A stretch of DNA of 64,000 nt, taken from NCBI GenBank assembly GCA_965243135.1, contig OZ251539.1:5056001-5120000 (forward strand). Reading direction: 5' to 3'. This document shows, piece after piece, positions 2,118 through 21,624 of this stretch. Made by a program: the position numbers and the translations under genes. This DNA comes from Alphaproteobacteria bacterium (GTDB taxonomy: Bacteria; Pseudomonadota; Alphaproteobacteria; MPNO01; UBA830). Position 1 is the stretch's first letter. Each line of letters begins with the position of its first letter. Below the pieces are notes generated by a model, which saw nothing but the letters and a program-made list of their open reading frames with translations, searched no databases and was not told the origin of the DNA.

Positions 2118-3159
2118 AACGTAGAATGGTTCAATCTTCAATCACCGATTGAACGAAAAGAATTTGTAAAGGAAGACGACGGACACAAATACTTCATACA
2201 CAATAAATTTGACGAGATAATTACGTCGGCACGAACCATGATATCTCAGTGTGCCGTGGCAAGGCGCTTTCGTGGGTGCGAATCCCACCCAACAACTGTC
2301 GTTCCGGTCAGCTAGGGCGGTTTACGGAGGTAACGATGTAGATTGAAGCACTCTGGAAAAAAGGGCGGCGAAGGCCGCCCAGTGAACATGCGGGCCGAAA
2401 CGAGCAGTGAACCAGGCCTCGAAACGGGTAATGTGGGAGCTGACCCTCCTGAGATTAGGGGAATGACGGTCGGGAAGAGAACGACGGAAGCACCGACCGT
2501 TTCCGCCGGGGTAGTGATGTCGGCACGCATGGAAGATGAAGGAAGCAGCAACACAGGAAACTCTGCCGGTGACGCGCACGAGTCAACCGGAACCCCGCGA
2601 GGGGCAGGCCGGGCCGGCGGGGTGGCGGAGAGGCCCGTAGTGTAAGGCCGGCGGAGGAAAAGGGCGCGAGGAAGGGCACCGCAGGGGAGAAGGGGCTATG
2701 CCTAACAACCGACTACATGTCAGAGATCCCGGAAGCGCCGCAAGCGAAGAAACCCGGTCGAGAGGCCGGGGCCGTCGAGGCGTAAACAAGCTTGGCGACG
2801 GAAAGCGGGAACAGGCGTAAATGGGAGACGGTGCGACTCCCGGGTCTGGAAGACCGGCCGTTCCGGGAACGCTGCCAATTCATCCGTGGGCGAGACGCAT
2901 GGCTGGAGGCGCGGGAAACCCGCACGTCCGGTTCGGAGAGCGGGGACTGGAAACGTGGCCACGGAAGCCGGACTGAGGCCCGGAGCGAAAACGACGGAAC
3001 CCGGACCCTAACGCTAACGCGCTAGTCCTCGACTCTACCGGAAGAGGGAACGCAGATATCGGTGATGGTCGGATGGTAATATTGGAACCAGAAAGATATT
3101 TGAATGCAAAAATAGACGAGGATTTAGATTTGCCTATATCATTCTGTACAACAGATTAG
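2108..3159 (+). pseudogene. HicA-like toxin gene, frameshifted near 2150 and interrupted by a group II intron
   Basis: MVLKRRMVQSS, then after a +1 shift ERKEFVKEDDGHKYFIH...ARTMIS; joining 2248 to 3039 gives SH-GRGNADIGDG, a HicA-like SHG..DIG motif. Confidence 0.65.
2249..3038 (+). mobile_element. ORF-less (IEP-deleted) group II intron, 790 nt
   Basis: 5' GTGTG; EBS1 TGAGAT (2450-2455) in a stem loop complementary to exon end ATCTCA (2243-2248); DV-like gcgggaaacccgcacgtccggttc at ~2900-2934; DVI stem ggggactgg/ctagtcctc with bulged A at 3032; 3' end ...ctcgactctAC. Confidence 0.88.
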
Positions 3160-7197: not shown

Positions 7198-9099
7198 CTA
7201 TCCGATCTGCCGTCCAGTCCAGGCGAACGTACCCACGCTGTGCATCGTGTTCGTCGCGTTCGAAACCGCGTTTGCCAGATCCTGATCATCGAGATTCTGA
7301 TCGCAGATCTTGCTCAGCCGGTCCAATGCGTCCGCCGCTCCTTGATTGGCACCGTCGATTCCGGTGAGCTTCGGTAGCACCCTCATCTCGACTTGGTCCA
7401 CAAGGGCATTCCTCCAGTCCTTTGAAGGATAGCGCTCAATGTATCGCGCCATCGCCTGTCCCATCCGGTGACCGAAGGGCCGACCAACTCTTTCCATCAC
7501 TTCTTCGTTAATCAAAGTGATTGTCTGCCGAGCTTCACTTTCCATTTCCCGCCCTTCGCACCATCTCCGCCAATTCTCATCTTTGAGGGCTTTCTCTCCT
7601 CCCTCTCGTCCGTTCTTATCCAAGCCAGTCCCCATAGCTGTAAATTGGATCTCCTGCGGCCTGGGAAATCGGATAACGTTTGAGCGGTCAATCACCTTGT
7701 CCGAAAGCGTCTGCGTGCTTTCGTCCTCATTCATCGTGCCCACCCACAGGATTCGCTCCGAGGGATAGATTCTTTCCGCTTCTTCACCTTCTCCATGCGG
7801 CACGTCGAGCTCGATCATCGTCTCTGGACGTGGTCCGCCTTCTTTAAATTCTTCTCGCGCCTGCCTCAGCTCCAAGCGACTCAAGAAGTCTGAAAAATAG
7901 TACTCGGTACGAGCTAAGTTCATTTCGTCTAGCAATACCATCGCCATACGGCCGTCTTCTTGCTCGTTCTTCCGTCCTTGGTCGAAGTTCCACAAGAGGC
8001 GCGCAAGCTCTGTAGCCTGATACCTTCCATGCATGTAATCATACGAACCAACCAAGTCGATCGGGCTATCCCACCGCGGTTGCACAGGCACAACCAATAA
8101 ATACATTCCCATCGCCTCGGCATACGCCCGCGGTAGCTGCGTCTTCCCCGTGCCGCTAATTCCAGCAAGAACGGTAAGCGGCGACACCTCCGCTATTTTG
8201 AGCGAGGTATGCAACCTCCACACCATTCTTTGGTTGAACTTGAGGCCCCATTGACGAATGAGGCTTATCGCCTCGTCTAGCGCTTCGTTTTCGTCTTGAA
8301 TTGGTTTGTCTGATCTATAGCCTCCTACACAACCCGGTTGTCTGGTAAGGTTTCCTAGGCGGGTTTTACCTTGTTTATTTTCACCTAATTTTCCGCCCAT
8401 CTCTCCTTTCATCTTCTCCACCTCTCTTTCGTAACTTTCTTTTCTGACTTCCGCAGACCGGGCTCTATCTTCCGCTTCATTGGCTCTTTTTTCCGCAGAT
8501 TCTGCTACTTCCTTTTTCCGTTCCAATTCCGATTCAATAGAAGCCAATTCTTTGCTTTTTTCTGCTATTTCTTTTGCAAATTTATTGATTTCATCTTCTA
8601 GAATCTTCTTTTCTTCCTGAGCCGATTTCTTCCATTCGATAAACTGTTCTTTTTTGGGATCGAATTCTTCCACATACTTTTGAAGTCTATTCTTCTTTTC
8701 TTCCATCTCGGCCATCTCCTTTTCCATTCGGTCCCGCTGTTCCTGAACCATTTCACCCTTCCTTGCGATCTCCCGAATCTTCAATTCTTCTTCTTTCGCA
8801 AATTGGTCGAGCGCTTTGCGCTGTTCGCCCAGACCAGAATATTCTTCCTCGATCTCTTTTATTTCCCGGGTAAGTTCTTCAATTTTTTTTGCCAAATTTT
8901 CGCTTGTCTCGGCCTTTCCTCGAACTTCCTCGTACTTCTTTTCGGCCTCGTTAATGCGTCTCGCCGCCTGATCGTATCGATCCTCCATTGACGAACCATT
9001 TCCACTTCGTCTGTGGAAGGTGAGCCATGCTACGGTCCAGCCTCCTGCCAATGCGGCCCCTACGACACTCGCCACAGTCCACGGGATTTCCCAGATCAT
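7198..9099 (-). CDS. McrB-like AAA+ GTPase with N-terminal TM helix and long coiled coil
   Basis: Walker A GISGTGKT, Walker B MVLLDEMNLA, GTMNEDEST (NxD variant), KVIDRS arginine finger; hydrophobic residues ~5-27; E/K-rich heptads ~35-230. Confidence 0.85.
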   Translation of the reverse strand: MIWEIPWTVASVVGAALAGGWTVAWLTFHRRSGNGSSMEDRYDQAARRINEAEKKYEEVRGKAETSENLAKKIEELTREIKEIEEEYSGLGEQRKALDQFAKEEELKIREIARKGEMVQEQRDRMEKEMAEMEEKKNRLQKYVEEFDPKKEQFIEWKKSAQEEKKILEDEINKFAKEIAEKSKELASIESELERKKEVAESAEKRANEAEDRARSAEVRKESYEREVEKMKGEMGGKLGENKQGKTRLGNLTRQPGCVGGYRSDKPIQDENEALDEAISLIRQWGLKFNQRMVWRLHTSLKIAEVSPLTVLAGISGTGKTQLPRAYAEAMGMYLLVVPVQPRWDSPIDLVGSYDYMHGRYQATELARLLWNFDQGRKNEQEDGRMAMVLLDEMNLARTEYYFSDFLSRLELRQAREEFKEGGPRPETMIELDVPHGEGEEAERIYPSERILWVGTMNEDESTQTLSDKVIDRSNVIRFPRPQEIQFTAMGTGLDKNGREGGEKALKDENWRRWCEGREMESEARQTITLINEEVMERVGRPFGHRMGQAMARYIERYPSKDWRNALVDQVEMRVLPKLTGIDGANQGAADALDRLSKICDQNLDDQDLANAVSNATNTMHSVGTFAWTGRQIG

Positions 9100-10244
9100 T
9101 GCTCCGTTCCCCCGCTAGGCACACTCGTTCGCTTGTCTTCCAAACGCTTGAGCGTTATCTCTAATTTTGTACTCGCCTCTGAAAGTTCTTCCATTATCTT
9201 CATGTATTCGCGTTCCAGACGTTCGACATCGTCCTTCGCAGCCCGGCCGATTCCTTGTAGACGTTTCAATTTCGACTCGATCTCCCGCCTTTCACTTTCG
9301 AGGCGCGCAACCTCTTCGCGAACCGCTCGTAACTCTCCTTTGGCATCGTCCAACTCACGCTCAGTTATGTCGAGATCCGCCCTTGCACGCTGGTTTTGTT
9401 TCACAAGACGTTCCCGTTTCAATTCCAGACGTTTGACGTCACCTGCTTTAGTTTGCGCTTCCTGTTCTGCGTTCTGTATTCGAGTTCGCAATTCTTTCTC
9501 GCGCACCGACAGATCGTTGACGCGCGCATTCCGCGTGTTCTCCTCTGTCTTGAGGTCTTCCACCGACCTCAAGAGGCGTTCTTTCCGTTCGTCTAGCACC
9601 TTCGCATCGTCAATCGTCTTGCGCGCTGTTTCGGCCCGTATTCTCAGGTCTTCTTCCTCTTGCCGCAGCGACGGTAAAACTTCTTCAAATCTCCGTTTTT
9701 CCGAATTGAGATCTTCAATTTGTCCTCTAACACGTTTTTGCTCCAATTTTAGACGTATGACGTCATCTGCTCTGGTTTGCGCTTCCTGTTCTGCGTTCTG
9801 TACTTGAGTTTGTATTTCTCGTTCGCGCGCTATTAGGTCGTTGATACGCGCATTCCGCGTGTTCTCCTCTGTCTTGAGGTCTTCCACCGACCTCAAGAGG
9901 CGTTCTTTCCGTTCGTCTAGCACCTTCGCATCGTCAATCGTCTTGAGCGCTGTTTCGGCCCGTATTCTCAGGTCTTCTTCCTCTTGCCGCAGCAATGGTA
10001 AAACTTCTTCAAGTTTTCCCCTATCTGATTTCAGCCCTTCTACCTGGGTCAGCAGCTCGCTGCGCTGAACCTCAAGCGCATCAATCGCAGCACGCTGCCG
10101 GGCAGCGTCGATACTCTCGCTTACGACAATGGTTGCGGGGATGCCCACGAGCAGCAATCCCAATGCGGCACCCAATCCAACCCTGACTCGGACTTTCTTC
10201 ATGTCCTGGCTGACGTGCTTGAATATGTCTGCGTCACTCATCAA
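9096..10244 (-). CDS. Membrane-anchored long coiled-coil protein with internal 108-aa duplication
   Basis: VGLGAALGLLLVGIPATIVV hydrophobic segment followed by E/R/K/L heptads; stop overlaps the next start (ATGA). Confidence 0.8.
   Translation of the reverse strand: MMSDADIFKHVSQDMKKVRVRVGLGAALGLLLVGIPATIVVSESIDAARQRAAIDALEVQRSELLTQVEGLKSDRGKLEEVLPLLRQEEEDLRIRAETALKTIDDAKVLDERKERLLRSVEDLKTEENTRNARINDLIAREREIQTQVQNAEQEAQTRADDVIRLKLEQKRVRGQIEDLNSEKRRFEEVLPSLRQEEEDLRIRAETARKTIDDAKVLDERKERLLRSVEDLKTEENTRNARVNDLSVREKELRTRIQNAEQEAQTKAGDVKRLELKRERLVKQNQRARADLDITERELDDAKGELRAVREEVARLESERREIESKLKRLQGIGRAAKDDVERLEREYMKIMEELSEASTKLEITLKRLEDKRTSVPSGGTEQ
9410..10012. repeat. Two-copy in-frame tandem duplication, 324-nt period
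   Basis: ~9520-9688 is nearly identical to ~9844-10012 (EEVLP.LRQEEEDLRIRAETA.KTIDDAKVLDERKERLLRSVEDLKTEENTRNAR); looser similarity extends beyond. Confidence 0.9.
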
Positions 10245-11037
10245 GTGCCTCCTTGATTTTCATTATGCATCCTGCGGGATCCTTTCGAATTTCGTGATCC
10301 CAGAATCGCAGCGTCTTCCATCCGGCGGCTGCCAAGCAATCGTCACGCCAGCTATCCCGATCTACCCGCTTACCTTCTTCGTCCGTGTGCCATATTTTCC
10401 CATCGGCTTCAACGCAGAGCTGGCGTTCTCCCTTCGTCAGTGCGAAATCTATCCGGTAACGTCCGACCTGCATCTGCCGTTCAGCGTGGAGGCCGGCTTG
10501 TTCCATGGCTTCGCTGAGCTCGTCCTCCAGTCCAGATTCCGTGACCGGTCCGCTCCTTCCTTTGAGAGCGTCCAAGAAAGCGCGGCTTCGCCAATCCGCC
10601 GGCTTCTGGAAGAGGCTCGGGTTTCCAACGCAAATGAGAGCATGGGTTGTAGCCCGCCTCGCGTCCCACATCCGTTTGGCGAACTCGCGAGGATCCGTGA
10701 TTACATCAGGAAGGGCTATATACCGAACGCCGACAACATTTCGCGCCATCGCCGTCCCGACAGTTCCGATATATCCGGCCCACTCCCGTCGGCGCTTCTC
10801 GCGCTCGCTATCGTGTTCTTCCCGATCTACGAAGTAGAGTAGTGGTTTACGCACCCACGGAACTACCTCCTCTGCCGTCCATGCCTCGTTTTGCCGCCAG
10901 CGCCCAGTCGGGCCATAGCGCACCGGGCCTTGGCCAGTTGCCGGCTCCAGTCCTTCATACCACGGCCTCTGCGGCGCCTGCCGCTGACGTCTACGCCGGA
11001 GTTCACTCGTCCTTATTCCAAGCGGCGTGAGTTTCAT
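10234..11037 (-). CDS. DUF559/Vsr-like PD-(D/E)xK endonuclease with a degenerate helicase-like N-terminal part
   Basis: ESGLE...QMQVGRYRIDFAL...VEADGKIWH...RDDCLAAAGWKTLRFW; ATG at 11037 chosen because the longer ORF overlaps the neighbouring gene. Confidence 0.8.
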   Translation of the reverse strand: MKLTPLGIRTSELRRRRQRQAPQRPWYEGLEPATGQGPVRYGPTGRWRQNEAWTAEEVVPWVRKPLLYFVDREEHDSEREKRRREWAGYIGTVGTAMARNVVGVRYIALPDVITDPREFAKRMWDARRATTHALICVGNPSLFQKPADWRSRAFLDALKGRSGPVTESGLEDELSEAMEQAGLHAERQMQVGRYRIDFALTKGERQLCVEADGKIWHTDEEGKRVDRDSWRDDCLAAAGWKTLRFWDHEIRKDPAGCIMKIKEALDE

Positions 11038-11059
11038 TTGATTGCTGAATTCAAGCGCG

Positions 11060-11446
11060 TCAGGCTTGACGGCCGCCCTTGGCGAGCCAGTCGAGTCTGA
11101 GGTCGAGCCTGTCGCCGAGCCACAACGGATACCAGGCATGATCCTTCCATGCGTCCCCCGCTTCGGGGTGAACGAGAATCACGAGCCCGTCGCGATTGAA
11201 CATTAACCAGGGAACGATCTCGGAAAACAGATCCTGATCGAACTCGATCTGGTACATGTCCACCGGATGCGGACCGACGGGCCGGTCGCGAAAACGTCCC
11301 ATGCGCACCCGTTCCGGCCACTTGCTCCATACCTTTTCCCGAAGCCGCGCCGCCTTCTCCCGCAAGGCGTCGTCGTCCCCGTAATAGACATGCGCATGGT
11401 AGCCCCGAATTTTCGTCTCGTCGCCATTTTCGAACCGTTCCGTCAT
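11060..11446 (-). CDS. DOPA 4,5-dioxygenase family protein
   Basis: GYHAHVYY, RPVGPHP, LVHP...DH..PLWLG motifs. Confidence 0.88.
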   Translation of the reverse strand: MTERFENGDETKIRGYHAHVYYGDDDALREKAARLREKVWSKWPERVRMGRFRDRPVGPHPVDMYQIEFDQDLFSEIVPWLMFNRDGLVILVHPEAGDAWKDHAWYPLWLGDRLDLRLDWLAKGGRQA

Positions 11447-11510
11447 CTTCGCGTTCCCCGCCGTCGTTCGCGGATGGACAGGCCGGCGGCTCCCATGCCT
11501 GACCGCTTCC

Positions 11511-12932
11511 CTACAGGACGCGCTCGTCCCGCACCCTTTTCGCCTTGAACTCGGTCTTTGGCAACGTGCCCGGCGCAAGCACCTCGACGCCGGCCCGCAC
11601 CTCGCAACGCGCCCGGATTTCTCCCGCAACGGCTTCGGCGACGGTCTCGCCTTCGTTCCCGTGCTCGACCCGAACCGTCATTACGTGCAGTCCGTCGGCG
11701 CCGGTCGTCAGCAGAATCTCGAACTCGTCGCCGATGCCGTCGACGGCGCGCACCGCCTGCTCCACCTGGCTCGGAAAGAACTTGATCCCGCGCAGGTTGA
11801 TCAGGTCGTCGGCGCGTCCGGTGAACGAACCCATCGCGCGCACGTGGTTGCGCCCGCAGTCGCAGGTCGCGGTGTTGAAGACCGTATAGTCGCCCACCAG
11901 AAACCTGAGCTGCGGCGAGCTTTCCGAATTCAGCGAGGTGCAGACCGTCAACCCGCGCTCGCCTTCGGGAACGACCTCTCCGGTATCCGGATCGACCAAC
12001 TCCCAGATCTGGATGTCCTCGGTCAGATGCGTAAAGACCTGTTCGCCTGCGGTCGAGTAGGGACAGGTGAATCCTCCGGCGTGGGGCGAGACTTCCGTGC
12101 AGCCGTAGAACTCGGCGGTGCGGCAACCCCATAGCTCCTCGATCCGTCGGCGCGTACGATCGATGCCCATCGCCGGTTCGCCGCCCGTGAACAGCGCATG
12201 AACCGAGCTTGCAGCCGGATCCAGCCCGGCTTCCTGCATGACGCGCCCGAGGTAAAGCGCGTAGGAAGGCGTACAGGCGATAACCGTAGGCTTGAAACGG
12301 TCGATGACGTTGGCCCGCGCCCGAGCGTCCATCCCGCCGCCCGGGATGACGGCGATTCCGAGCCGGTCGGCGGCGACCGTCACGCCCCAGATCCATACGT
12401 GCGGCCCGAATCCGACCATCGGGAACAGCACCTCGCCCGGCCGGATGTCCATGGACCACATCGCGCGCGCGTTCGCCCACTCCCAGTATTCCCGGTCCAG
12501 ATGCGTGTAGCGGAATACGCGAGGCGCGCCGGTGGATCCCGAAGAAGAGAACAACATCCAGCCCCGGTTTGCCCAATCCTCGTCGTCGATGGCGCAATAG
12601 GTGCCGTAGGGCGGATTGGCGGCCGCGTCCTCCATCATCTCCGATTTGCGGATTACCGGCCATTTCGAGAGATCTTCCACCGATGCGATATCGGTCGGCG
12701 CAAGGCCGAGCCGATCGAACCGCGCCCGGTAGAAGGCGCTGTTCTCGTAGAGATACGGCGTGACCGCCGCGAGTTTCTCGTTCTGAATGGCGGTAAGTTC
12801 GTCGCGCGACGCCGCGTCGAGCGACGGCGACCAGTATCGCTCGTTCGCCGGCGCGTCGAAATCGCGCCGGTATTTTGCCAGAGTCTCAAGCCACTCCTTG
12901 CGCGTCCGAACCTTGCGATCGTTTCCCGCCAT
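11511..12932 (-). CDS. Phenylacetate--CoA ligase family protein (PaaK-like)
   Basis: SSSGSTG P-loop, YGCTE, GRADDLINLRG, LPKTEFKAKR. Confidence 0.85.
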   Translation of the reverse strand: MAGNDRKVRTRKEWLETLAKYRRDFDAPANERYWSPSLDAASRDELTAIQNEKLAAVTPYLYENSAFYRARFDRLGLAPTDIASVEDLSKWPVIRKSEMMEDAAANPPYGTYCAIDDEDWANRGWMLFSSSGSTGAPRVFRYTHLDREYWEWANARAMWSMDIRPGEVLFPMVGFGPHVWIWGVTVAADRLGIAVIPGGGMDARARANVIDRFKPTVIACTPSYALYLGRVMQEAGLDPAASSVHALFTGGEPAMGIDRTRRRIEELWGCRTAEFYGCTEVSPHAGGFTCPYSTAGEQVFTHLTEDIQIWELVDPDTGEVVPEGERGLTVCTSLNSESSPQLRFLVGDYTVFNTATCDCGRNHVRAMGSFTGRADDLINLRGIKFFPSQVEQAVRAVDGIGDEFEILLTTGADGLHVMTVRVEHGNEGETVAEAVAGEIRARCEVRAGVEVLAPGTLPKTEFKAKRVRDERVL

Positions 12933-13117
12933 GGATGCTTCCCCTTGCTTCGCGTTCGGGATCTCCTCCCGCGCATGCGCCCGATATTCCGGGGATCCGC
13001 GCATCGGCACAACCCCCCTCGCGTCGAGCGCGGGCTGCCGGCCGCCCGAAGCGGGATGCGCAACCCCGCATATTCGGTTAGGTTAACCCGAACGAAAACC
13101 GGAAACGGAGTTCGCGG

Positions 13118-14224
13118 ATGCCCGGCGGCCCGCCATTTCATGCCGAACATATCGGGAGCCTGCTGCGGCCGAAATGGCTCATCGACGCCTTCCGCGAGCG
13201 CAAGGCCGGCAAGATCGGCGACGGGGACTTCGAACGGATCCGCGAGGACGCGATTCGCGACGCGGTCCGACTGCAGGAAGGCGCGGGGCTGCAGGTCGTG
13301 ACCGACGGCGAGTTTCGCCGCACCACCTACATCTCGCATTTCGTCGAGTCGTGCGACGGCCTGGATTTCCGCCCTTCCTCGTTCAGGTTCTACGATTCGG
13401 AGGGCGGAGACCACGAATTCCTGGCGCCTCGCTGCGTCGGCAAGGTCAGGCGGACGCGCGCCCTCTCGGCGGAAGAATTCGGATTTCTGGAAACGGTCAC
13501 CGACCGGACGATCAAATATACCTACCCGTCGCCCGCGACCATGCACTTTCTCGGCGGCGCGCCCGACCCGGATCCGGAGTTTTACGTCACCGAGGACGAG
13601 CTCTTCGCCGACATCGCGGCCGCCTACGATGCCGATATATCCGACCTCGCAAGCCGGGGAGCGCGTTACGTTACCCTGGACGACGTGCCGTTCCCGATGC
13701 TTTGCGACCCCGCCATCCGGGCGCGGGTGGAAAGAAGCGGCAAGGACCCCGAGCGGTTGATCGACCGGTACATCGACCTCACCAATGCGAGTTTCGCGAG
13801 CGCGCCGAAGGATATGACGGTCGGATTTCACATGTGCCGCGGCAACCTGAAGGGGACATGGCTTTCGGAAGGCAGCTACCAGGCGGTGTCGGAAAAGCTG
13901 TTCGGCCGCCTGAAGGTGGACGCGTTCTTTCTCGAATACGACACCGAACGGGCGGGCGGCTTCGAACCGCTTGCCGCCTTGCCCGAGGACAAGATGGCCG
14001 TTCTCGGCCTCGTCAGTTCGAAAGTTCCCGAACTGGAATCGAAGGATGCGCTCAAGTCGCGCATCCGCCAGGCCGCCGAGTACGTCGATCTCGACCGGCT
14101 CGCGCTGAGCCCCCAATGCGGATTTTCTTCGGCCGTGGTCGGCAATCCCGTGACGGTCGAGGATCAGATCGCCAAGCTCGGGCTCGTCGTCGAGACGGCG
14201 GCCGAAACGTGGGGCGAGGGGTAG
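13118..14224 (+). CDS. Cobalamin-independent methionine synthase II family protein (core MetE-like)
   Basis: HIGSLLRP, VVTDGEFRR, HMCRGN, LEYD, LSPQCGFSS zinc-ligand motifs. Confidence 0.88.
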   Translation: MPGGPPFHAEHIGSLLRPKWLIDAFRERKAGKIGDGDFERIREDAIRDAVRLQEGAGLQVVTDGEFRRTTYISHFVESCDGLDFRPSSFRFYDSEGGDHEFLAPRCVGKVRRTRALSAEEFGFLETVTDRTIKYTYPSPATMHFLGGAPDPDPEFYVTEDELFADIAAAYDADISDLASRGARYVTLDDVPFPMLCDPAIRARVERSGKDPERLIDRYIDLTNASFASAPKDMTVGFHMCRGNLKGTWLSEGSYQAVSEKLFGRLKVDAFFLEYDTERAGGFEPLAALPEDKMAVLGLVSSKVPELESKDALKSRIRQAAEYVDLDRLALSPQCGFSSAVVGNPVTVEDQIAKLGLVVETAAETWGEG

Positions 14225-14595
14225 GAGACGCCCGAAGGCGATGGAATCGACCGGTCTCGATTCGGCCGATGGGTGGACGCCTGCGGATTTTCGTCCTTCT
14301 CTCGCTTCCCGTCCCGCTCGGGACGCGGTTCGCCGAACGGAACCGTTCGGCGTTCCGCCGCCAGTCGGAGCGTTTCGAGCGGAAGCGGCGTCGCATTTGT
14401 CCCGACGACCGGACATGTGCTTGAAAAGTCTGCAAACGCGTCGCAAAGACACCCGCTCGGAGAAAGCGGCGACCGTAGACCTACAGGAGGCGGTCAGCTT
14501 GCGGCGCAGCGGTCTCGGCGACGAGGGTATAAAATGCTCTGGACGGCGAAACGCAGGCTCTCCGTGCCTCGGACGCTCGTGAGGAAGGCACCGGA

Positions 14596-16179
14596 ATGGC
14601 GCAAGGACGACCAGCGCACACGGACCCGGACAACGGCGGCTCCGCGACCGAGGCTCAGCTTTGGAAAATGTCCGACGCGCTGCGCGGCCCCATGGATGCC
14701 GCCGAATACAAGCATGTCGTTCTCGGTTTGATTTTTCTGAGGTGCATTTCCGCTGCCTTCGAAGAAATTCGCGCACGCTTGAAAAACGAACGAGCGCAGG
14801 GAACGGATCCGGAAGACCCGGACGAATATCGCGCAGAGAACGTATTCCGGGTTCCCGAGGAGGCCCGCTGGACCCACCTGCAGTCGCAAGCGCGACAACC
14901 CGACATCGGACAAATTGTCGACGCCGCCATGGCAAGCGTCGAACGCGATAACCCGGGGCTCAGGGACGCGTTGCCCAAGGGCTACGCCAGACCTGCGCTC
15001 GACAGGCAGCGCTTGGGGCAACTCATCGATCTTGTCGGGACGATAAGGGCAGGAAACGAAGAGGCGCGTTCCGAAGACGCGCTCGGTCGCGTCTACGAGT
15101 ATTTTCTCTCGCGCTTCGCGAGCGCAGAAGGAAAGAAAGGCGGAGAGTTCTACACTCCCCGGTGCGTCGTCAAGCTACTGGTCGAGATGCTGGAACCGCA
15201 TCAAGGCCGTGTGTACGATCCTTGCTGCGGATCGTCGGGCATGTTCGTGCGGTCGATTGAATTCATGCGCGCGCGCGCCGTCGACAACAGGGCAACGCCT
15301 TCGGCCGGAACCGACATCTCAATCTATGGTCAGGAGCTGGATCATGCGACATGGCGCCTGGCCCTGATGAACCTCGCCATCCGCGGCATTGCCGGGCGGA
15401 TCGAACGCGGCGACAGCTTTCACGATGATCGGCACCCCGACCTGAAAGCGGATTTCATCATTGCCGCTCCCCCGTTCAACGTCTCGGACTGGGGCGGCGA
15501 GCGCCTTGCGGACGACCGGAGATGGCGATACGGCGTGCCGCCTGGGGGGAATGCCAACTTCGCTTGGGTTCAGCATATAGTTCACCATCTGGCGCCCGGC
15601 GGAGCGGCGGGTTTCGTGCTCGCCAACGGCTCGATGTCCTCAAGTCAGGCGGCGGAGAGCCTGATCCGCAAAAACCTGATCGAGGCGGATATCGTGGACT
15701 GCATGGTCGCGTTGCCCGGCCAGCTATTCTACTCGACGCGGATTCCCGTATGCTTATGGTTTCTGCGGCGCGGACGAGGCGACGATGGGCGCGGTAGCCG
15801 AACGAGGCGAATCCTGTTCATCGACGCTCGCAAGCTCGGCCGCATGGTAAATGGCGCGAACTTCACCCGCCGCGAGTTGACGGACGAGGACATCGCCCGC
15901 ATCGCCGACACCTACCATGATTGGGCCAAAGCCTCGTCGACGGACTACGCCGACGTGCCCGGGTTCTGCAAAAGCGCGGATTTGAGCGAAGTGCGCGAGC
16001 GCGATTATTCGCTCGCGCCCGGACATTACGTCGATACGGACCCTGAAGAGCGAGACGGAGATCCTTTTGACGGCAAGATGAAACGATTGGTGGTTCAGCT
16101 CCGTGAACAACGGGCCGAGGCCAAGAAGCTGGATGCAATCATCGAGGGCAACCTGAAAGCCATGGGGTTCCGCCTCTGA
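14596..16179 (+). CDS. hsdM: Type I R-M methyltransferase subunit with altered catalytic motif (APPF)
   Basis: [42 protein letters not shown]; motif IV reads IIAAPPFN. Confidence 0.9.
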
Positions 16180-16825
16180 AGAATTCCCGACGAATTTTCA
16201 GAGGTATGGAACGGCGAAATGCGTGTATGGAAGATTTGAGATAACGCTTGGGCATCGGCGAGAACGTCATGATAATTTTTGGACGATCGACGCCGGCATG
16301 CCGAAAACCCTCCAAGAAGCCGTCGCCGAATCCGGCGTCCGCCGTTTCGGAAAGGAGGCGACGGGAATGGCGGAAGTCGTCGCCTTCGCTTCGCATGCGG
16401 GTGCGCGGGACCGGCCAACGTTCCGTCGGGACCGCATTGCCGACGCCCCGACAGACATGCCGCCGACATGTCGTCGCTCAACCGTCAAGGCAGTGCGGCG
16501 TCCCGGATTTCCTCTTCGCGCCGGCCGCGATGACCGTCGTTGATCGCAACTCTCTGCGCGCGCCCCGCGACCATGAACGCCGGGGACTGTGCAGCCGGCG
16601 TTGCGCAAACCGACGCCGGCCGGTCAAGGGATGGCGCAGGGTCGAGACCTACGACGTAAATCGTTTCCGCGACTTGACCTCAGACATGTTTTTGCCCTAT
16701 TTTGCTGTCTTGTGCACGGAGTAAGGCGGCGTCGGTTCGGCAAAGGACGGAATTTTCTTGGGCTCGCCCATCAAGAGTCAGGAACCGTCCGGCTGAAAAT
16801 GCGAATCTCAGGGAACTCTTCGAAA

Positions 16826-17254
16826 ATGAACCTCGATTACTCGTCTCTCGAAAAAGCCGTATCCCAGTTAAGGAAGAGTTTCGAATACGTCCATTCGGAC
16901 CTAGCCAGGAATGATTCCGATCTGCGAGATCAATTCCGCGGCGCCACCGTTCAAGCGTTCGAGTGTAGTTACGAATTGGCGATCAAGATGATCCGGCGCC
17001 AGCTCGCGGGAATCGTCGCCAATCCCGATGAGCTGCGCGCATCGGATTTCGCCGACGTGATGCGGCAGGCGGCGGACGCGAAGATTATCCGGGACGCTCC
17101 GTCCTTCATGCGCTATCGCGAGCTGCGAAACCTGACTTCCCATACTTACAATGCCGATCAGGCCGAAGCGACGGTCGCCGCCGTGAATGATTTCCTGTCC
17201 GATATGGCTTTCCTTCTGGAGAATCTGGAGAAAAGAAATCGTGAGGCCTGTTGA
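16826..17254 (+). CDS. HEPN-domain toxin (HI0074-like nucleotidyltransferase substrate-binding family)
   Basis: QAFECSYEL and intact RNLTSHTY (R-X4-H-X-Y); ATG at 16826. Confidence 0.88.
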   Translation: MNLDYSSLEKAVSQLRKSFEYVHSDLARNDSDLRDQFRGATVQAFECSYELAIKMIRRQLAGIVANPDELRASDFADVMRQAADAKIIRDAPSFMRYRELRNLTSHTYNADQAEATVAAVNDFLSDMAFLLENLEKRNREAC

Positions 17255-18338
17255 TATCGCCCCTGGAGATCTTGAAACGGTTCAACTCATTCTTCGCAAA
17301 CATGTGCCGGATTTCGAGGTGCGGGCATTTGGATCGCGCGTTTCCTGGACCGCTCGCGATACTTCGGATCTGGATCTGGCGATAATTTCCGACGAACCGT
17401 TGGAAATTGCGGCTTTGGCCGAAATAAGGGAAGATTTTATACAATCGAACCTCCCGTTTCCTGTAGATGTCGTGGATTGGTCCACCGCGTCCGACGGTTT
17501 CCGGAAAATCATTGAAAGCGATTCCGAAATTCTTCGCCCGGGCTGCAATGACAAAACCTTTATTGCAGAAACGTGCGCTTCTCTTAAGCGCAAGCTGGTA
17601 TTGAACCTACGGATGAACGGAACGCTCGAAGCGATATTGCGCACGGCGTTCAGCGACTGGTTTGTCGATTACGGCCCGGTCCGCGCAAAATCAAACGGCG
17701 AGTCGGCATATCTTCCCGCGCGGCTCTGGTCGCTTTTCCCGGATCGCTTTGAGGACTCTGAAATCGGAGAGGCGCCGGAGGAATGGCGGCTGAAGTCTAT
17801 AGCGACCGTTGCCGATTGCATTGACGGCATCGTCGATTCAAGCGAAGTCGACGAAGGTCTCCCGTATATTGGGCTTGAACATATGCCTCGCGATTCGATG
17901 TTTATCTCGGAATGGAAAAGCGCGGGAGAAGCGACAGGAACGAGATTGAAATGCAATGCCGGAGATTTTCTTTTTGGAAACCGGGAACCCGGTTTTCGTA
18001 ACTTTGGAATAGTTCTAGTCGATGGAACTTGTTCGGCGGATTTAGCAATTGTCGCGCCAAAAACGAATTATTTTGATGGAATGATGTCATCCCTCTTTTT
18101 GGCTCACAAATTGATCGAATTTACAGACGGAGAAGTCGCGATGGCGAAGGATTTGCGTGCAAATTGGGAATCGTTCTCTCGACGAGAAATTGCTGTCCCT
18201 ACGTCGTCTTTGATGGCCGAATTCGGCAAATTTGCGCAGCCAATACTAGACCTGATCGTTGCGAACGTTAGGGAATGCCATTTGTTGAATGAAGTTCTCC
18301 GCACGAGGACTTTTGAAATGCGAAGCGCCCTTTCTTGA
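17241..18338 (+). CDS. MNT nucleotidyltransferase antitoxin fused to a half HsdS (single TRD)
   Basis: GTG start overlapping the HEPN gene; AFGSR...SDLDL...VDVVDW MNT motifs, then HsdS conserved region LNLRMNGTLEAI...WFVDYGPV...LFPDRFEDSEIGEAPEEW and TRD-like PYIGLEHMP...GDFLFG. Confidence 0.82.
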   Translation: MRPVDIAPGDLETVQLILRKHVPDFEVRAFGSRVSWTARDTSDLDLAIISDEPLEIAALAEIREDFIQSNLPFPVDVVDWSTASDGFRKIIESDSEILRPGCNDKTFIAETCASLKRKLVLNLRMNGTLEAILRTAFSDWFVDYGPVRAKSNGESAYLPARLWSLFPDRFEDSEIGEAPEEWRLKSIATVADCIDGIVDSSEVDEGLPYIGLEHMPRDSMFISEWKSAGEATGTRLKCNAGDFLFGNREPGFRNFGIVLVDGTCSADLAIVAPKTNYFDGMMSSLFLAHKLIEFTDGEVAMAKDLRANWESFSRREIAVPTSSLMAEFGKFAQPILDLIVANVRECHLLNEVLRTRTFEMRSALS

Positions 18339-18682
18339 TTCCGCTTGGAGCGGCGTATTTTTTGCGTATCGGCGAGAGCCAAGTCGGCGTGCCCGCCGAC
18401 TCTGAAAGCCCGGCGCGCCTCTGCGGCAAACGGCGGGCGCGGAGTCTCCCAACTCACCGACCGCCGCCGGCCGTCCGCCTGCGCCCGCCTACGAGTTTGA
18501 CACGCCGGCCGGGTTCGGGAAATCTCTTCGTGAACTCGTCACGGCTTCCCGTCACGAATATGCCTGTCAGTGCGCCTTGGCGCGGGCGTCGAGAACGCGG
18601 CCGTTCAGCGCGCGACTGCGCTGGGGCCGGTCCCGAAGCGCGGCGGAGACCGCGAGCCTGCCGCGTTGCGCCGCGGCGAATC

Positions 18683-19672
18683 CTATTCCATCAGCAAAAC
18701 CGACTTGCCGACGATCTTTCGGTCCTCGAGCGTCCGGATGCCGTCCATGTACCGGTCGAAAGGCAGCCGGTTCGTCACGTTGGGGTCGATCTTGCCGGCG
18801 CGGAGAAGGTCGTACAGCGCCTCCTGCGCTTCGCCCACCAGAGGCGACGCGCCCTTGATGTAATAGTTCACGGTCGAACCCATGATCGAAATGTTCTTGA
18901 GCAGCAGATAGTTGGTCCTGACCGATGGGATGACGCCCGAAGTGAACCCGGAAACCACCACGCGCCCTTCGCTGGCGATGGCGCGAAGCGTCGCGTCGAA
19001 CACCGCGCCGCCGACCAGATCGAAAGCGAGGTCGACGCCGTGGCCGTCCGTGGCCGCCATCGCCTGCGCGCGCAGGCCGTCCTTGAGATCCTCGACCGAC
19101 AGGTCGATCACCGCATCCGCGCCCGCCTTCGTTACCGCGCCGGCCTTGGACGGCGTGGTGAGCCCGGCGAGGACGATGCGCGCGCCGAGCGCGCGGGCGA
19201 CGTTGATCGAGGCGAGCCCGACGCCGCCCGACGCGCCGTTGACCAGAACCACGTCGCCGGCTGTCATGCCGCCGCGCCGGGTCAACGAAAGGTAAGCCGT
19301 AAGATAGGCGAGGCCCATGCCCGCAGCCGCGTCGAAGCCGACGTCGTCCGGAACCGGGAAGGCCAGCGCGGCCGGACACGCGACCTTTTCGGCCATGGCG
19401 CCGTGGATCACGTGCGCGATGACACGGTCGCCGACCCGGTGCCGGGTCACGCCGTCTCCGACCGCCGAGACGACGCCGGCCGCGTCCTTCCCCGGGGTGA
19501 ACGGCGCCGGCGGGTTGTTCTGGTACTTGCCGTCGAGCGACAGCAGGTCGGTGAAATTGACGCCGCAGGCCCGCACGTCTACGATGACCTCTCCTTCCCT
19601 CGCCACGGGGTCCGGAACTTCGTCGATCCCGACATCCCGGTTTTCGGTGTTTCTTATGACGACGGCACGCAT
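18683..19672 (-). CDS. NADPH:quinone oxidoreductase family (MDR)
   Basis: GVNFTD, PFTPG, NGASGGVG motifs. Confidence 0.85.
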   Translation of the reverse strand: MRAVVIRNTENRDVGIDEVPDPVAREGEVIVDVRACGVNFTDLLSLDGKYQNNPPAPFTPGKDAAGVVSAVGDGVTRHRVGDRVIAHVIHGAMAEKVACPAALAFPVPDDVGFDAAAGMGLAYLTAYLSLTRRGGMTAGDVVLVNGASGGVGLASINVARALGARIVLAGLTTPSKAGAVTKAGADAVIDLSVEDLKDGLRAQAMAATDGHGVDLAFDLVGGAVFDATLRAIASEGRVVVSGFTSGVIPSVRTNYLLLKNISIMGSTVNYYIKGASPLVGEAQEALYDLLRAGKIDPNVTNRLPFDRYMDGIRTLEDRKIVGKSVLLME

Positions 19673-19851
19673 CTTTTCTCCTTCCGCTTCGTCAAGGCCC
19701 GCTCGGGGAATCCGCGGGCGCTGCTGGGCCTCGACGCCCAGCGGCGACGGCCGGCGGCAGGATAGGGCATGAACGGCGCGGCGACTATCCCCGGCCGGCG
19801 CGGCGAAGTTCCCGTCGCGGCGGCGGCGCGCCGATTGCGGAAACGGACGGC

Positions 19852-20733
19852 GTGAGCGGCGTCGTCGGCGATATCGTCTGGCGCCGGGTCGTCGAATCGG
19901 AAGGCCCGGAATTCGAGGTCGGCTTCCTGTTGCCCGACGCGGTCCCGGCCGCGGTGGACCCGCATCGCGAATGGATGGAGCCGCACTTCCTCGAACCCGG
20001 CACCGGCCGCCTGGTCATGGCGATCCAGTCCTACGTTCTGAAGACGCGGCATCACACGATCCTGATCGACTCCTGCGTCGGCAACGACAAGGAGCGCCGT
20101 TTCTACCCGCCATGGTCGGGGCGCACGGGCGGCGGATACCTTGAAGGGCTCGCGGCCGTCGGGGTCGTCCCGGAAGACGTGGATTTCGTCATGTGCACGC
20201 ATCTGCACGCCGACCACGTGGGCTGGAACACGCGGCTGGTGGACGGACGCTGGACGCCGACCTTTCCCAATGCGCGATACGTCTTCGCGAAGCCCGAGTT
20301 CGACTTCTGGTCCGATCTCAACAGGAAAGGCAAGAAATACTCCGACGGTTGCATCGACGACAGCGTGCTGCCGGTGGTGGAAGCCGGCCAAGCGGAAATC
20401 GTCCCGGAAAACTACGCGTTCAACGACGAGATCTGGTTCGAACCGAGTCCCGGACATACGCCCGGCCACGTGTGCATCCGGCTTCGCTCGCGCGGCGCCG
20501 AGGCGGTGATTTCCGGCGATGTCGTCCATACCCCGTTGCAGTGCCGCGAACCCGGGTGGAGCGCCGTCGGCTGCGCGGACCGCGTCCGGTCGGCCGCGAC
20601 CCGAAAGTCGTTCCTCGATCGCTATTGCGAAACCGGCACGCTCGTGATGACGGGGCATTTCCCGTCTCCTTCGGTCGGTTTCGTGCGGCGCCGCGAGGAC
20701 GCGTTCGACTTCGCGTTGGCGGCCCCGTCGTGA
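19852..20733 (+). CDS. MBL-fold metallo-hydrolase
   Basis: THLHADHVGWN, PGHTPGH, SGDVVH. Confidence 0.88.
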   Translation: MSGVVGDIVWRRVVESEGPEFEVGFLLPDAVPAAVDPHREWMEPHFLEPGTGRLVMAIQSYVLKTRHHTILIDSCVGNDKERRFYPPWSGRTGGGYLEGLAAVGVVPEDVDFVMCTHLHADHVGWNTRLVDGRWTPTFPNARYVFAKPEFDFWSDLNRKGKKYSDGCIDDSVLPVVEAGQAEIVPENYAFNDEIWFEPSPGHTPGHVCIRLRSRGAEAVISGDVVHTPLQCREPGWSAVGCADRVRSAATRKSFLDRYCETGTLVMTGHFPSPSVGFVRRREDAFDFALAAPS

Positions 20734-20845
20734 ACCGGTCGCCCGAAAACGGCGCGTGGAGGGGCGGCGCCGACCGTCCGCCGTCGTCGCGGCGGCCCGT
20801 CGTCGCCCTTCGGCGCGCGATGCCCGCCGGACGCGAGCCCGCGCC

Positions 20846-21595
20846 GTGACGGCGGTCTTCGAACCGGGGAGCTACCGCTACGCGCCGGGTCCCTTCCAGT
20901 ACTCGGCCGGCGTCGCCGCCGAGCCGGGTTTCACGATCGAGCGCGCGCGGTTCTCCGAGCCGGTCCCTCTCGAAGAAGGCTTCCGGGCCGTCGAACGCCT
21001 GCTGGCCGCGGCCGGACGGCCGCTGACGGCGTTCTGCGCCTGCGAGCTTCGCTCGCCCGCGCCGTTCACGGAACGGGGTTTCGCCGAATTCAACCGCGTC
21101 TATGCGGAAACCCTGGCGCGCTGGGGCCTCCTCGCGGACGGGAACAATCCCGTCGCAAGGTCCAACGTCTGTCCGGAGATCGACCCTCCGCCGACCCCCA
21201 GCTTTCATGCGTTTTGCTACACGGTTCCGGCTTCCGGCGGCGTCCCGGGGTTCGTCGTGGCGGGCTCGGCGGAAGCGCCGGAAGGCCGCGGCAACTACCG
21301 CGACCACATCGTCCGCCGCGGCGAGACCGCGCCCGGCGCCCTGCGCGAGAAGGCGCGTTTCGTCCTGAACGCGATGGAGACGCGCATGGAGGCGCTGAAG
21401 GTCGGCTGGCGGCACGCGACGGCGACCCAAGTCTATACCGTGCACGACGTTTATCCGTTCCTCGCCGACGATATCCTCGCCCGCGGCGCGGCGGTCGGCG
21501 GCCTCGTCTGGCATTACGCCCGTCCGCCGGTCGAAGGCCTCGAATACGAAATGGACGTCCGCGGCGTGCCGGTCGAACGGGTCGTCCGCCCGTAG
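20846..21595 (+). CDS. CnbZ-like (aminomuconate deaminase-like) hypothetical protein
   Basis: [42 protein letters not shown]; GTG start inferred. Confidence 0.65.
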
Positions 21596-21624
21596 GCGTT
21601 TCCCCGCTCCGCCGGCCGCCGCTC

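Follow-up and report, generated by a model that had tools for sequence, protein, structure and literature searches.

In the HepT/MntA toxin-antitoxin system, the MNT antitoxin AMPylates the tyrosine of the RX4HXY motif of the HEPN RNase HepT, a motif that also provides the catalytic arginine and histidine (PMC7641770). HEPN genes cluster with restriction-modification (R-M) operons (Anantharaman et al. 2013, PMC3710099, Table 1), and these R-M-linked HEPN domains are found fused to nuclease, helicase or ATPase subunits (PMC3710099). In EcoprrI, a type Ic R-M complex keeps the anticodon nuclease PrrC in check until T4 Stp releases it. Ronin consists of hsdS and hsdM without hsdR, together with a tightly linked toxin. 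Its triggers are Ocr, ArdA and Aop1, and mutation of its NPPF active site has no effect (bioRxiv 10.1101/2023.04.06.535777). Lastly, half-size HsdS subunits (engineered M·½S, S. aureus CC398-1) dimerize into a complete S, leading to an active enzyme (PMC6158711).

Anatomy of the locus

The locus under study lies in a 64-kb window, i.e., the whole stretch of DNA that was analysed, and all its features are on the forward (+) strand. The first gene, hsdM (14596-16179), is a full-length open frame of 527 aa whose Pfam matches (HsdM_N, 6e-22; N6_Mtase, 8e-101) correspond to the N6-adenine methyltransferase fold of type I R-M. After a spacing of 646 bp comes the gene of a putative HEPN RNase toxin of the HI0074 family (16826-17254, alternative ATG at 16799; 142 aa). 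The third gene (17241-18338, 365 aa) encodes an MNT domain fused to half an HsdS and overlaps the HEPN gene by 14 nt from its GTG start at 17241, or by 68 nt if the alternative ATG at 17187 is the start. An earlier note had described hsdM, a HEPN gene with an intact R-X4-H-X-Y motif and an overlapping MNT::HsdS fusion, and all of them are present at these coordinates.

The HEPN protein matches NTase_sub_bind (2e-26), its one Pfam match, as well as the NCBIfam model HI0074 (1e-20) and PDB chain 1jog (5e-23). Its RNLTSHTY segment (residues 101-108; 17126-17149) contains the catalytic Arg and His together with the Tyr of RX4HXY, and 5 of 64 family-invariant columns are altered, every change being conservative. 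The MNT domain, of the HI0073 family, covers residues 1-99 of the fusion (17241-17537) and carries the GSX10DXD motif as G31-S32-X10-D43-L44-D45 (17331-17375). It matches PDB chain 1no5 (HI0073; 2e-22), on which its predicted model superposes with a TM of 0.96, and keeps 22 of 23 family-conserved residues; its score with the NCBIfam MntA model is 42 bits, under the cut-off of 60. By analogy with HepT/MntA, the HEPN protein would be toxic and would be silenced through AMPylation by MNT.

The hsdM-HEPN gap retains 41 aa from the N-terminal end of what was another HEPN gene (16226-16348), detected by tblastn with 44% identity to the HEPN of locus L081 (pairwise E 1e-10); at the matching position, locus L062 has two HEPN/MNT pairs. 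A promoter-like site (TTGACC-18-TATTTT, 16674-16703) lies 5' of HEPN but is weak, two such sites being observed for 1.1 expected from shuffles. Immediately 3' of the fusion stop codon is a terminator-like hairpin with a T-run (18341-18363); terminator-like sites overall show no excess (4 observed, 5.9 expected from shuffles).

Residues 100-365 of the fusion correspond to half an HsdS. This assignment is based on the PADLOC profile Specificity_I (8.5e-35, positions 147-419 of 446), on PDB chain 7vru_C (9e-9) and on a predicted helix-TRD-helix fold (pLDDT 84) that resembles the HsdS structures 1yf2, 3okg and 5ybb_D. Pfam Methylase_S gives no match to this half even at E ≤ 10, but the PADLOC, 7vru_C and structural matches rule out that it is something other than an HsdS. 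According to the alignment and the predicted fold, a long helix (fusion residues 104-142; 17550-17666) represents the central conserved region of HsdS; it is followed by a single TRD (17673-18200), counterpart of TRD2 in full-length relatives, and by the C-terminal conserved helix (18204-18332), whose usual LLPKLxSGE end is lost. Instead of the two TRDs of a type I HsdS there is thus one. TRD1 is absent from both alignment and model and, in agreement with the earlier note, is exactly the part that is missing relative to full-length relatives. In the remaining half, 36 of 81 conserved columns are altered, and the TRD has a net charge of -11 vs -9 to +16 in 94 relatives.

The MNT::HsdS operon family

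The fusion has 842 homologues among database proteins and, in the best 120 of them, the NTase and Methylase_S Pfam domains are both found in 112 (471-601 aa). In species-representative genomes, relatives of the family account for at least 592 stretches, distributed over many phyla. Among 79 fetched loci, 38 have an MNT match and 27 of these 38 encode full-length fusions, with an adjacent HEPN in 23 of the 27, an upstream hsdM in 24 and a downstream HsdR in 22. Where at least 8 kb of sequence was available, HsdR was found in 19 of 22 loci, and Pfam assigns 19 of 22 large downstream ORFs to HsdR. Judged by this gene content, the family is one of hsdM-HEPN-MNT::hsdS-hsdR operons that are normally complete type I R-M systems. 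We found no description in the literature of an MNT::HsdS fusion with an upstream HEPN, and the accessible text of PMC3710099 and of bioRxiv 10.1101/2024.01.29.577857 holds no mention of an MNT fused to HsdS.

The locus has the core of this family, i.e., an MNT N-terminal to HsdS with HEPN directly upstream and hsdM upstream, and differs from the full-length members by its one TRD and the absence of hsdR. The earlier note had stated that no hsdR flanks the locus; indeed none is present in the 64-kb window. The sole HsdR of the 6.1-Mb genome (C1:2785210-2787153) is more than 2 Mb away and is 30-32% identical to the HsdR of the MNT::HsdS operon family, while the HsdM adjoining it is 26% identical to that of the locus. 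At such identities it is part of another, unrelated type I family, leaving the locus with no cognate HsdR of its own. Further R-M fragments are found elsewhere in the same genome. The left and right flanks of the locus are in separate places in four other genomes of the genus, which marks a synteny break.

The short architecture is not confined to this strain, whereas the earlier note had regarded uniqueness to the strain as contrary to its proposal: it occurs in four other protein clusters (66-92% identity), and a ~95-97% identical relative has it at the same genomic place. Close relatives of the short form were found neither in JGI metagenome contigs (scan with the short-clade alignment), nor in 78 genomes of the order (protein queries), 400 sampled genomes of the class or the best 80 loci of the at least 592 species-representative matches. 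Locus L085 is an independent HsdR-less half-S form, and such derivatives arose at least twice. In five related genomes with the family, an HsdR frame of more than 1000 aa is kept at three loci; the HsdR of G060 is reduced to frames of 402 and 119 aa, and in G023 its domain is split across three frames. The MNT::HsdS fusion was already there in the ancestor of a large family of complete R-M operons, from which the locus derives by loss.

Relaxed constraint, open frames and the role of the locus

HsdM is ~70% identical to thousands of HsdM and is a fast-evolving member of a tight HsdM subfamily. Its motif IV reads APPF (IIAAPPF) instead of (N/D)PP(F/Y), the GCT codon at 15466-15468 placing Ala291 at the position of the Asn. 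This Asn is a catalytic-loop residue, whose replacement is reported to abolish EcoKI activity. Among the 107 readable of 120 homologues, 105 have NPPF, one has DPPF and this locus alone has APPF; NPPF is also found in 53 of 55 HsdM of the fetched family loci, and in the fast HsdM clade (n = 6) four members have NPPF and one DPPF. The "APPF-type HsdM" of the earlier note is thus a feature of this lineage only. At 15466/15467, the depth free of other letters in runs X1 and X3 is the same as that of the near-identical contigs, from which we infer that these near-identical relatives share Ala291. The region of the SAM-binding motif is kept.

In HsdM, 37 of 299 subfamily-invariant columns are altered, compared with on average 1.8 and at most 5 of 289 columns in held-out canonical members. 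These 299 columns are invariant within the tight subfamily only, and more distant but complete operons have 10-33 of them altered at 60-70% identity, so the count by itself is no proof of decay. The argument for decay is carried by the rate ratio and by the placement in the tree. The rate of change at invariant sites of HsdM is 0.33-0.57 of that at variable sites (0.032 for canonical pairs), and the family-invariant sites of HsdM and of the HsdS half change 10-18 times faster than in canonical relatives. The clade sits on a long stem (0.28) within the tight subfamily in a quick tree of 40 of 175 rows. Since only 12 deviations are common to at least five of the six clade members, the losses accrue separately in each lineage; the rate ratio is below 1, and some constraint therefore remains. 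The deviations are spread over all regions of HsdM and, at these small numbers, give no clear sign that any of them, e.g. the C-terminal helices, is spared.

The reading frames of hsdM and half-hsdS are open in 5-6 diverged relatives, and open frames persist to 34% protein divergence. Under simulated unconstrained substitution, the frame of the HsdS half stayed open in 2 of 400 simulations at the observed divergence of 38.5%, and that of hsdM in 6 of 400 at 18%. Between the locus and the X3 contig, 96 of the 1896 bases that span HEPN and the fusion (16717-18612) are different, compared with 2.3-3.1% in the flanks, which fits a dN/dS near 0.4 for the fusion gene as a rough estimate rather than a measurement. 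The earlier note had proposed AlphaFold-multimer as a check; a prediction of the complex with predict_complex brings the long helix of HsdS into contact with the C-terminal helix of HsdM with a score of 0.61 (best control, 0.00). Of 157 solved complexes, 116 attain this mark, as do 2 of 215 mismatched pairs. Contacts agree between runs to at least 77%, and the partner pLDDT is no lower than 74; since structures of similar complexes have been solved, the contact may come from the memory of the model. The earlier note had named neutral evolution of HsdM and the HsdS half as contrary to its proposal; constraint on both is strongly relaxed with lineage-specific losses, their frames are open and a contact between the two subunits is predicted.

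Based on the above, we propose that the locus is a non-restricting remnant held by a tethered toxin-antitoxin pair, which would be addictive rather than a working defence, a reading to which we give slightly less than an even chance. It descends, in reduced form and without hsdR, from an hsdM-HEPN-MNT::hsdS-hsdR operon. In this lineage, hsdR disappeared, an in-frame deletion removed TRD1 of hsdS and Ala took the place of the catalytic Asn of HsdM, so that no restriction and probably no methylation is left. What still works is most likely a type VII toxin-antitoxin pair, in which the MNT domain would AMPylate the Tyr of RNLTSHTY and silence the HEPN RNase, as in HepT/MntA. HsdS would depend on HsdM for stability. 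As the antitoxin is within HsdS, and HsdS assembles with HsdM via long helices, both remnants would be kept open as an antitoxin scaffold; the constraints of catalysis and DNA reading would have lapsed while this role stays, presumably with no benefit to the host. However, addiction alone is no obvious cause of the open frames because MNT is N-terminal, and the antitoxin could survive a stop in HsdS or the loss of hsdM unharmed. Ronin also counts against a remnant, in that by analogy an HsdR-less HsdM/HsdS can defend without methylation (bioRxiv 10.1101/2023.04.06.535777). The earlier note had itself mentioned a decaying R-M locus kept by toxin addiction as an alternative, and it is at least as well supported as the decoy that the note preferred. 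Even on the remnant reading, the locus would illustrate an ordered erosion path (HsdR first, then the TRD, then catalysis) along which the toxin pair and open frames persist, and this path matters for the annotation of "orphan" type I methyltransferases.

A Ronin-like decoy, the main idea of the earlier note, is somewhat less likely. Two HsdM and two MNT::half-HsdS would form a non-restricting, non-methylating look-alike of the type I methyltransferase core; binding of DNA-mimic anti-restriction proteins (e.g. Ocr, ArdA) would disturb the tethered MNT and leave new HEPN un-AMPylated, resulting in translation shutdown and abortive infection. Ronin is an experimental precedent, independent of methyltransferase activity (bioRxiv 10.1101/2023.04.06.535777), R-M-linked HEPN genes have been suggested before to follow the logic of PrrC (PMC3710099), and half-HsdS subunits dimerize to active cores (PMC6158711). 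The covalent fusion of the antitoxin to HsdS is kept across hundreds of species together with an inverted MNT-HEPN order, which suggests functional coupling and not mere linkage. The anatomy, the frames open in diverged relatives, contrary to neutral expectation, the predicted helix interface (memory or not) and the repeated origin of HsdR-less half-S derivatives also speak for this guard-like interpretation, which in this respect survives from the earlier note. It is weakened by the fusion being ancestral to complete operons and by the relaxed constraint: invariant-site changes in HsdM pile up per lineage with no new conserved state, and HsdS has lost its conserved end and many conserved positions. 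Furthermore, binding to DNA or to its acidic mimics would be awkward for such an acidic TRD. Plain decay also predicts the frequent erosion of HsdR in related genomes, and some HEPN relatives lack the catalytic His.

It is conceivable, if less likely than not, that MNT::HsdS defines a class of guarded type I R-M, present in hundreds of species and as yet undescribed, in which the methyltransferase core would also be the sensor of anti-restriction and a tethered type VII antitoxin would gate a HEPN RNase. In that case, the locus would represent the natural "masterless" decoy form of the class, a second and mechanistically different Ronin with an enzymatic antitoxin replacing simple sequestration. 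If functional, the tether would provide a concrete physical connection, open to testing, from a restriction complex to a toxin of abortive infection, the toxin-AMPylating enzyme being bolted to the subunit that anti-restriction proteins attack. It would carry the ideas behind PrrC and Ronin over to a large family present in many phyla, and would explain the frequent HEPN/MNT pairs in R-M operons.

It is improbable that the locus is a working orphan type I methyltransferase (two HsdM and a half-HsdS dimer with a palindromic bipartite site) with a stabilizing toxin-antitoxin, in which the motif IV Ala is tolerated or compensated. Half-HsdS dimers do give active methyltransferases (PMC6158711), the frames and the SAM-binding region are intact, and most HsdM of the fast clade keep NPPF or DPPF; but here the catalytic-loop Asn is replaced, the invariant HsdM sites and the TRD are heavily changed, and without HsdR there is no obvious selection for methylation. 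Similarly improbable is an inert young cluster of three functionless pseudogenes with frames open by chance and recent origin since, despite the relaxed HsdM and HsdS, the HEPN scar in the gap, the synteny break and the other R-M fragments of the genome, HEPN shares 98% identity with its counterpart in a relative that is 91-92% identical in the fusion protein, nearly all conserved residues of MNT are present, the catalytic motifs of both are intact, and the frames stay open at high divergence.

Comparison with described systems

HepT/MntA has the same RX4HXY HEPN and GSX10DXD MNT in overlapping genes, with HI0074/HI0073 and SO_3166/SO_3165 as structural prototypes; HI0074 and HI0073 are the closest solved relatives here. 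Whereas its antitoxin is a free protein of ~100-140 aa, MNT is here the N-terminal domain of a 365-aa HsdS fusion, and the pair sits inside a type I R-M operon. The typical pair consists of two small adjacent genes, MNT being almost always 5' (PMC3710099); the genes of the locus are adjacent and overlapping, but HEPN precedes MNT. The one-TRD helix-TRD-helix layout is shared with half-size HsdS (PMC6158711), from which the locus differs by the N-terminal MNT, the absence of the usual C-terminal end, the loss of many conserved residues and a partner HsdM without the catalytic Asn.

The nesting of a toxin module between hsdM and hsdS recalls the defence genes found inside type I R-M operons through "guilt by embedding" (Payne et al., bioRxiv 10.1101/2024.01.29.577857). 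In contrast to the fusions of HEPN domains in PMC3710099, the fused part is here the antitoxin, attached to the specificity subunit. As in PrrC/EcoprrI, a HEPN RNase is found inside a type I R-M operon and is thought to be R-M-controlled (PMC3710099), but PrrC is an ABC-ATPase-HEPN fusion that has no MNT and is masked non-covalently, whereas the HEPN of the locus is a single-domain protein of 142 aa accompanied by neither HsdR nor a complete HsdS. Ronin (hsdS-hsdM-ronA, E. coli ECOR55; Silas et al.) likewise combines HsdM and HsdS without HsdR beside a tightly linked toxin, which is HEPN here and not RonA; its function is independent of the NPPF active site, and the toxin is proposed to be released when anti-restriction proteins bind HsdMS. 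In the locus, HsdS is a half subunit, HsdM and HsdS look eroded and the decoy role is a prediction from sequence. The effectors differ as well: that of Ronin is a 61-aa membrane protein, and that of the locus would be a HEPN RNase whose enzymatic antitoxin is fused to HsdS.

Organization of the locus and of its neighbourhood

The locus consists of three co-directional genes on the (+) strand, flanked by genes for a MetE-like protein and a quinone oxidoreductase. The first, hsdM (14596-16179), has a 527-aa product in which HsdM_N and N6_Mtase domains are recognized and motif IV reads IIAAPPF, without the Asn of this motif. After a 646-bp gap comes the HEPN gene (16826-17254; 142 aa), of the HI0074/NTase_sub_bind family, whose nearest solved structure is HI0074 (1jog, E 5e-23) and whose residues 101-108 are RNLTSHTY. 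The fusion gene (17241-18338; 365 aa) overlaps it by 14 nt and opens with a GTG preceded by a GGAGAA motif. Residues 1-99 form an MNT domain of the HI0073 family (1no5, E 2e-22), with the motif G31-S32-X10-D43-L44-D45 present and a model that superimposes on 1no5 with a TM of 0.96; the remainder is half an HsdS. Pfam Methylase_S gives no match to the fusion, even at E<=10; the half HsdS is matched by the PADLOC Specificity_I model (E 8.5e-35, profile positions 147-419 of 446) and by PDB chain 7vru_C (E 9e-9). In the AlphaFold model of the fusion (pLDDT 84.1, pTM 0.67), two long helices (104-142 and 322-364) follow the MNT domain and enclose a single TRD; the model matches the HsdS structures 1yf2, 3okg and 5ybb_D. 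Domain, motif and structure matches confirm the gene content described in the earlier note, namely hsdM, a HEPN gene with RX4HXY, and an MNT fused to half an HsdS.

A promoter-like site upstream of the HEPN gene and a terminator-like hairpin with a T-run 3' of the fusion stop codon are both weak consensus matches. The G+C content over 16000-18500 is 0.53-0.58, compared with 0.62-0.71 in the surroundings. Within the hsdM-HEPN gap, 16226-16348 (+) still codes for 41 residues similar to the N-terminal part of a HEPN protein (44% identity to that of locus L081, pairwise E 1e-10), a scar of a second HEPN gene; at the equivalent position, between hsdM and hsdS, locus L062 carries two HEPN/MNT pairs.

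A candidate defence island precedes hsdM by 3.5 kb: a low-GC block (0.46-0.53) of five overlapping co-directional genes at 3134-11139 (-). It encodes an 858-aa protein without Pfam or PADLOC match, a DUF2357 (McrC-like) protein, a coiled-coil and AAA_5 McrB-like ATPase (PADLOC PDC-M26A, 7.6e-37), a 382-aa coiled-coil protein with an internal duplication and a DUF559/MTES_1575 nuclease-fold protein (PADLOC PDC-S37).

As the earlier note had stated, no hsdR flanks the locus. A single HsdR in the source genome (6.1 Mb, single contig C1) passes the family cut-off; its gene lies over 2 Mb away from the window, at C1:2785210-2787153. This HsdR shares 30-32% identity with those accompanying MNT::HsdS fusions elsewhere, the adjoining HsdM shares 26% identity with that of the window, and on these identities we take this HsdR to be part of an unrelated type I system. 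Because it has no cognate HsdR, the window locus cannot restrict. Elsewhere on C1, an HsdS-like fragment with a TAG stop (C1:2812727-2813439 (-)), about 20 kb from the complete type I system, is 81-83% identical to the central conserved region of the fusion family; an HsdM fragment (40-43% identity) and two further HEPN/MNT pairs are found at C1:716707-717085, C1:872569-873295 and C1:4482699-4483376.

The MNT::HsdS family and its reduced forms

The protein database holds 842 homologues of the fusion (E<=0.001). Among the best 120, 112 combine the NTase and Methylase_S Pfam domains, and with lengths of 471-601 aa they correspond to an MNT joined to a full two-TRD HsdS. One PADLOC Specificity_I model (PDLC03138) itself starts with an MNT, window residues 4-95 aligning with profile positions 2-93. 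Scanning a single representative genome for each species returned at least 592 relatives, the matches listed coming from Pseudomonadota, Chloroflexota, Acidobacteriota, Poribacteria, Nitrospinota and other phyla. An MNT match was obtained in 38 of the 79 loci examined, and 27 of these 38 are fusions of at least 450 aa. These 27 have HEPN directly upstream in 23 cases, hsdM upstream in 24 and a long HsdR match downstream in 22. When at least 8 kb of sequence extends beyond the gene, HsdR is present for 19 of 22 fusions, and HsdR Pfam domains occur in 19 of the 22 large ORFs located downstream, which indicates that the usual state is a complete operon, hsdM - HEPN - MNT::hsdS - (cargo) - hsdR, as at L068 and L083. 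The MNT::HsdS fusion is a family and not an accident. One full-length member, P0019, has DLA instead of DLD in its MNT motif.

Aligned to its full-length relatives, the window MNT runs directly into the 'PPL.EQ..IA' stretch that closes TRD1, so that the missing first TRD, already recognized in the earlier note, was lost by in-frame deletion. The architecture extends beyond this strain, since four other database clusters share the short form (358-376 aa; 92, 76, 73 and 66% identical); the C-terminal LLPKLxSGE end is absent from all five. A 3897-base contig from run X3 (equal in length to that of protein P0002) spans 15888-19500 and a 2592-base contig spans 13500-15912, both with the flanking genes of the window; a relative about 95-97% identical in DNA therefore has the locus at the same genomic place. 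When window 11500-21600 is compared with the four other genomes of the genus (G059-G062), the genes of the left and right flanks are located in different regions, G060 having them on separate contigs, so that the locus falls at a synteny break. Near-identical pieces of the locus also occur in four runs labelled sponge metagenome (X1, X2, X4 and X5).

Erosion is common in the family. Among five related genomes carrying it, three loci have, within 10 kb, an HsdR frame exceeding 1000 aa; G060 has only 402-aa and 119-aa HsdR frames, and in G023 the HsdR C-terminal domain is broken across three frames. An independent half-HsdS fusion of 389 aa is encoded in a Poribacteria MAG (L085:9998-11167 (+)), where TRD2 instead of TRD1 is deleted in frame and the canonical motifs are kept; HEPN and an NPPF-bearing hsdM are present and no HsdR is found within 10 kb, while the sister locus L059, also from a Poribacteria MAG, is a complete operon. 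Further short forms are P0091 (397 aa) and L078 (375 aa), and in three HEPN relatives (P0246, P0247 and P0249; 79-80% identical) the catalytic His of RX4H is replaced by Tyr. The same-genus genome G060 contains six HsdM genes of the window's subfamily and five MNT/HsdS loci (e.g. L014, L020, L027, L030 and L034), with one intact fusion only (a 581-aa frame); in its other loci the MNT lies in frames of 124-287 aa next to pieces of HsdS, and the HsdR frames are truncated.

Constraint on HsdM and the half HsdS

In the clade of short fusions, the MNT domain deviates at 0-1 of 23 family-conserved columns (background mean 0.8) and the HsdS half at 36-39 of 81 (background mean 3.6, maximum 50); identity to the window copy is 79-92% and 61.5-91.5%, respectively. 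The window HEPN deviates at 5 of 64 columns, always conservatively (background mean 0.9), and in the X3 relative the HEPN is 98% and the fusion protein 91-92% identical.

The window HsdM deviates at 37 of 299 columns, invariant only inside a tight subfamily, compared with a mean of 1.8 (maximum 5) of 289 for held-out canonical proteins; its five nearest relatives deviate at 35, 42, 10, 29 and 49. Since invariance is limited to this subfamily and complete operons at 60-70% HsdM identity also deviate (10-33 columns), we place weight on the rate ratio and the tree and not on the raw count. For pairs of HsdM proteins within this small clade, the rate of difference at invariant columns is 0.33-0.57 of that at variable columns, against 0.032 for held-out canonical pairs. 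Twelve deviations are common to at least five of the six clade members and nine are private to the window, all regions being affected. A quick maximum-likelihood tree, built from 40 of 175 rows, nests the clade (SH-aLRT 100) in the tight subfamily; its stem measures 0.28, versus 0.02-0.05 for neighbouring internal branches.

The motif is readable in 107 of 120 HsdM homologues, of which 105 have NPPF, one DPPF (P0122, the nearest relative) and the window alone APPF; NPPF is also found in 53 of 55 HsdM proteins of the loci. The 'APPF-type HsdM' of the earlier note is thus not a type. In runs X1 and X3 the depth without AA at 15466-15467 equals that of the near-identical contigs, from which we infer that the close relatives behind these contigs also carry Ala.

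The hsdM and HsdS-half frames have nevertheless stayed open. When unconstrained substitution was simulated on the window's own DNA (400 runs), the HsdS-half frame stayed open in 2/400 runs at 38.5% protein divergence and 16/400 at 28%, and the hsdM frame in 6/400 at 18% and 1/400 at 24%. The database contains called proteins within a length band only, and broken relatives are missed, a bias that can hardly account for five or six diverged copies being intact. A model of HsdM with fusion residues 100-365 scored 0.61 (best of three controls, 0.00); the mark used was attained for 116 of 157 solved complexes and for 2 of 215 mismatched pairs. At least 77% of contacts are common to the runs, the partner pLDDT is at least 74, and helix 491-523 at the HsdM C-terminus is placed against residues 107-139, the first long helix of the half HsdS. 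The model supports binding between the two, but complexes of like kind have been solved and the predictor may have reproduced them; the model shows likeness and not binding by the window copy.

A remnant or a decoy, and known systems

According to passages of PMC7641770, the antitoxin of HepT/MntA silences its HEPN partner by AMPylation of the motif Tyr. By analogy with that system (PMC7641770), the MNT domain would AMPylate Tyr108 of the HEPN protein and keep the RNase silent. We tentatively favour a reading, somewhat short of an even chance, in which the locus is a remnant kept by its toxin pair. Loss of HsdR would have ended selection for methylation and DNA reading, leaving HsdM and the half HsdS to drift while the toxin pair retains the locus; both frames would be kept as a scaffold for the antitoxin, since it belongs to the HsdS chain, which packs against HsdM.

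The earlier note preferred a decoy. On that reading the scaffold would itself be the functional part, and a DNA mimic binding the look-alike HsdM/HsdS core would stop AMPylation and free the HEPN. There is a precedent: in the parts of bioRxiv 10.1101/2023.04.06.535777 consulted, Ronin is described as hsdS and hsdM without hsdR holding a toxin; Ocr, ArdA or Aop1 set this toxin free, and the NPPF site is not needed for it. The window locus resembles it, on this partial description, in having an HsdM/HsdS scaffold without hsdR beside a toxin. Two points lean towards the decoy: the MNT is N-terminal in the fusion, so addiction alone protects neither the downstream frame nor hsdM, and the covalent MNT-HsdS fusion is conserved throughout the family. 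However, formerly invariant HsdM residues continue to be lost lineage by lineage, conserved HsdS residues have disappeared from the window half, and its TRD is very acidic (net charge -11, versus -9 to +16 in 94 relatives); all three lean towards the remnant. The decoy interpretation is partly supported, as the less likely of two live readings. Relaxed yet non-zero constraint together with open frames fits both.

Of greater value is the family itself. Passages of PMC3710099 and other papers already describe the clustering of HEPN and HEPN/MNT with R-M operons, and in PMC3710099 PrrC-like control was proposed for R-M-linked HEPN genes. The portions consulted of PMC3710099, PMC3632139, PMC4621449, PMC12839542, PMC7641770, PMC6158711, bioRxiv 10.1101/2024.01.29.577857 and 10.1101/2023.04.06.535777 make no reference to an MNT-HsdS fusion. 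The family is a large, apparently undescribed group of type I R-M operons in which a HEPN toxin is embedded and its antitoxin forms part of the specificity subunit. While the MNT is almost always 5' of the HEPN gene in the systems covered by the passages of PMC3710099, the order is reversed in the fusion family, with HEPN first, and this reversal makes the fusion of the MNT to HsdS possible.
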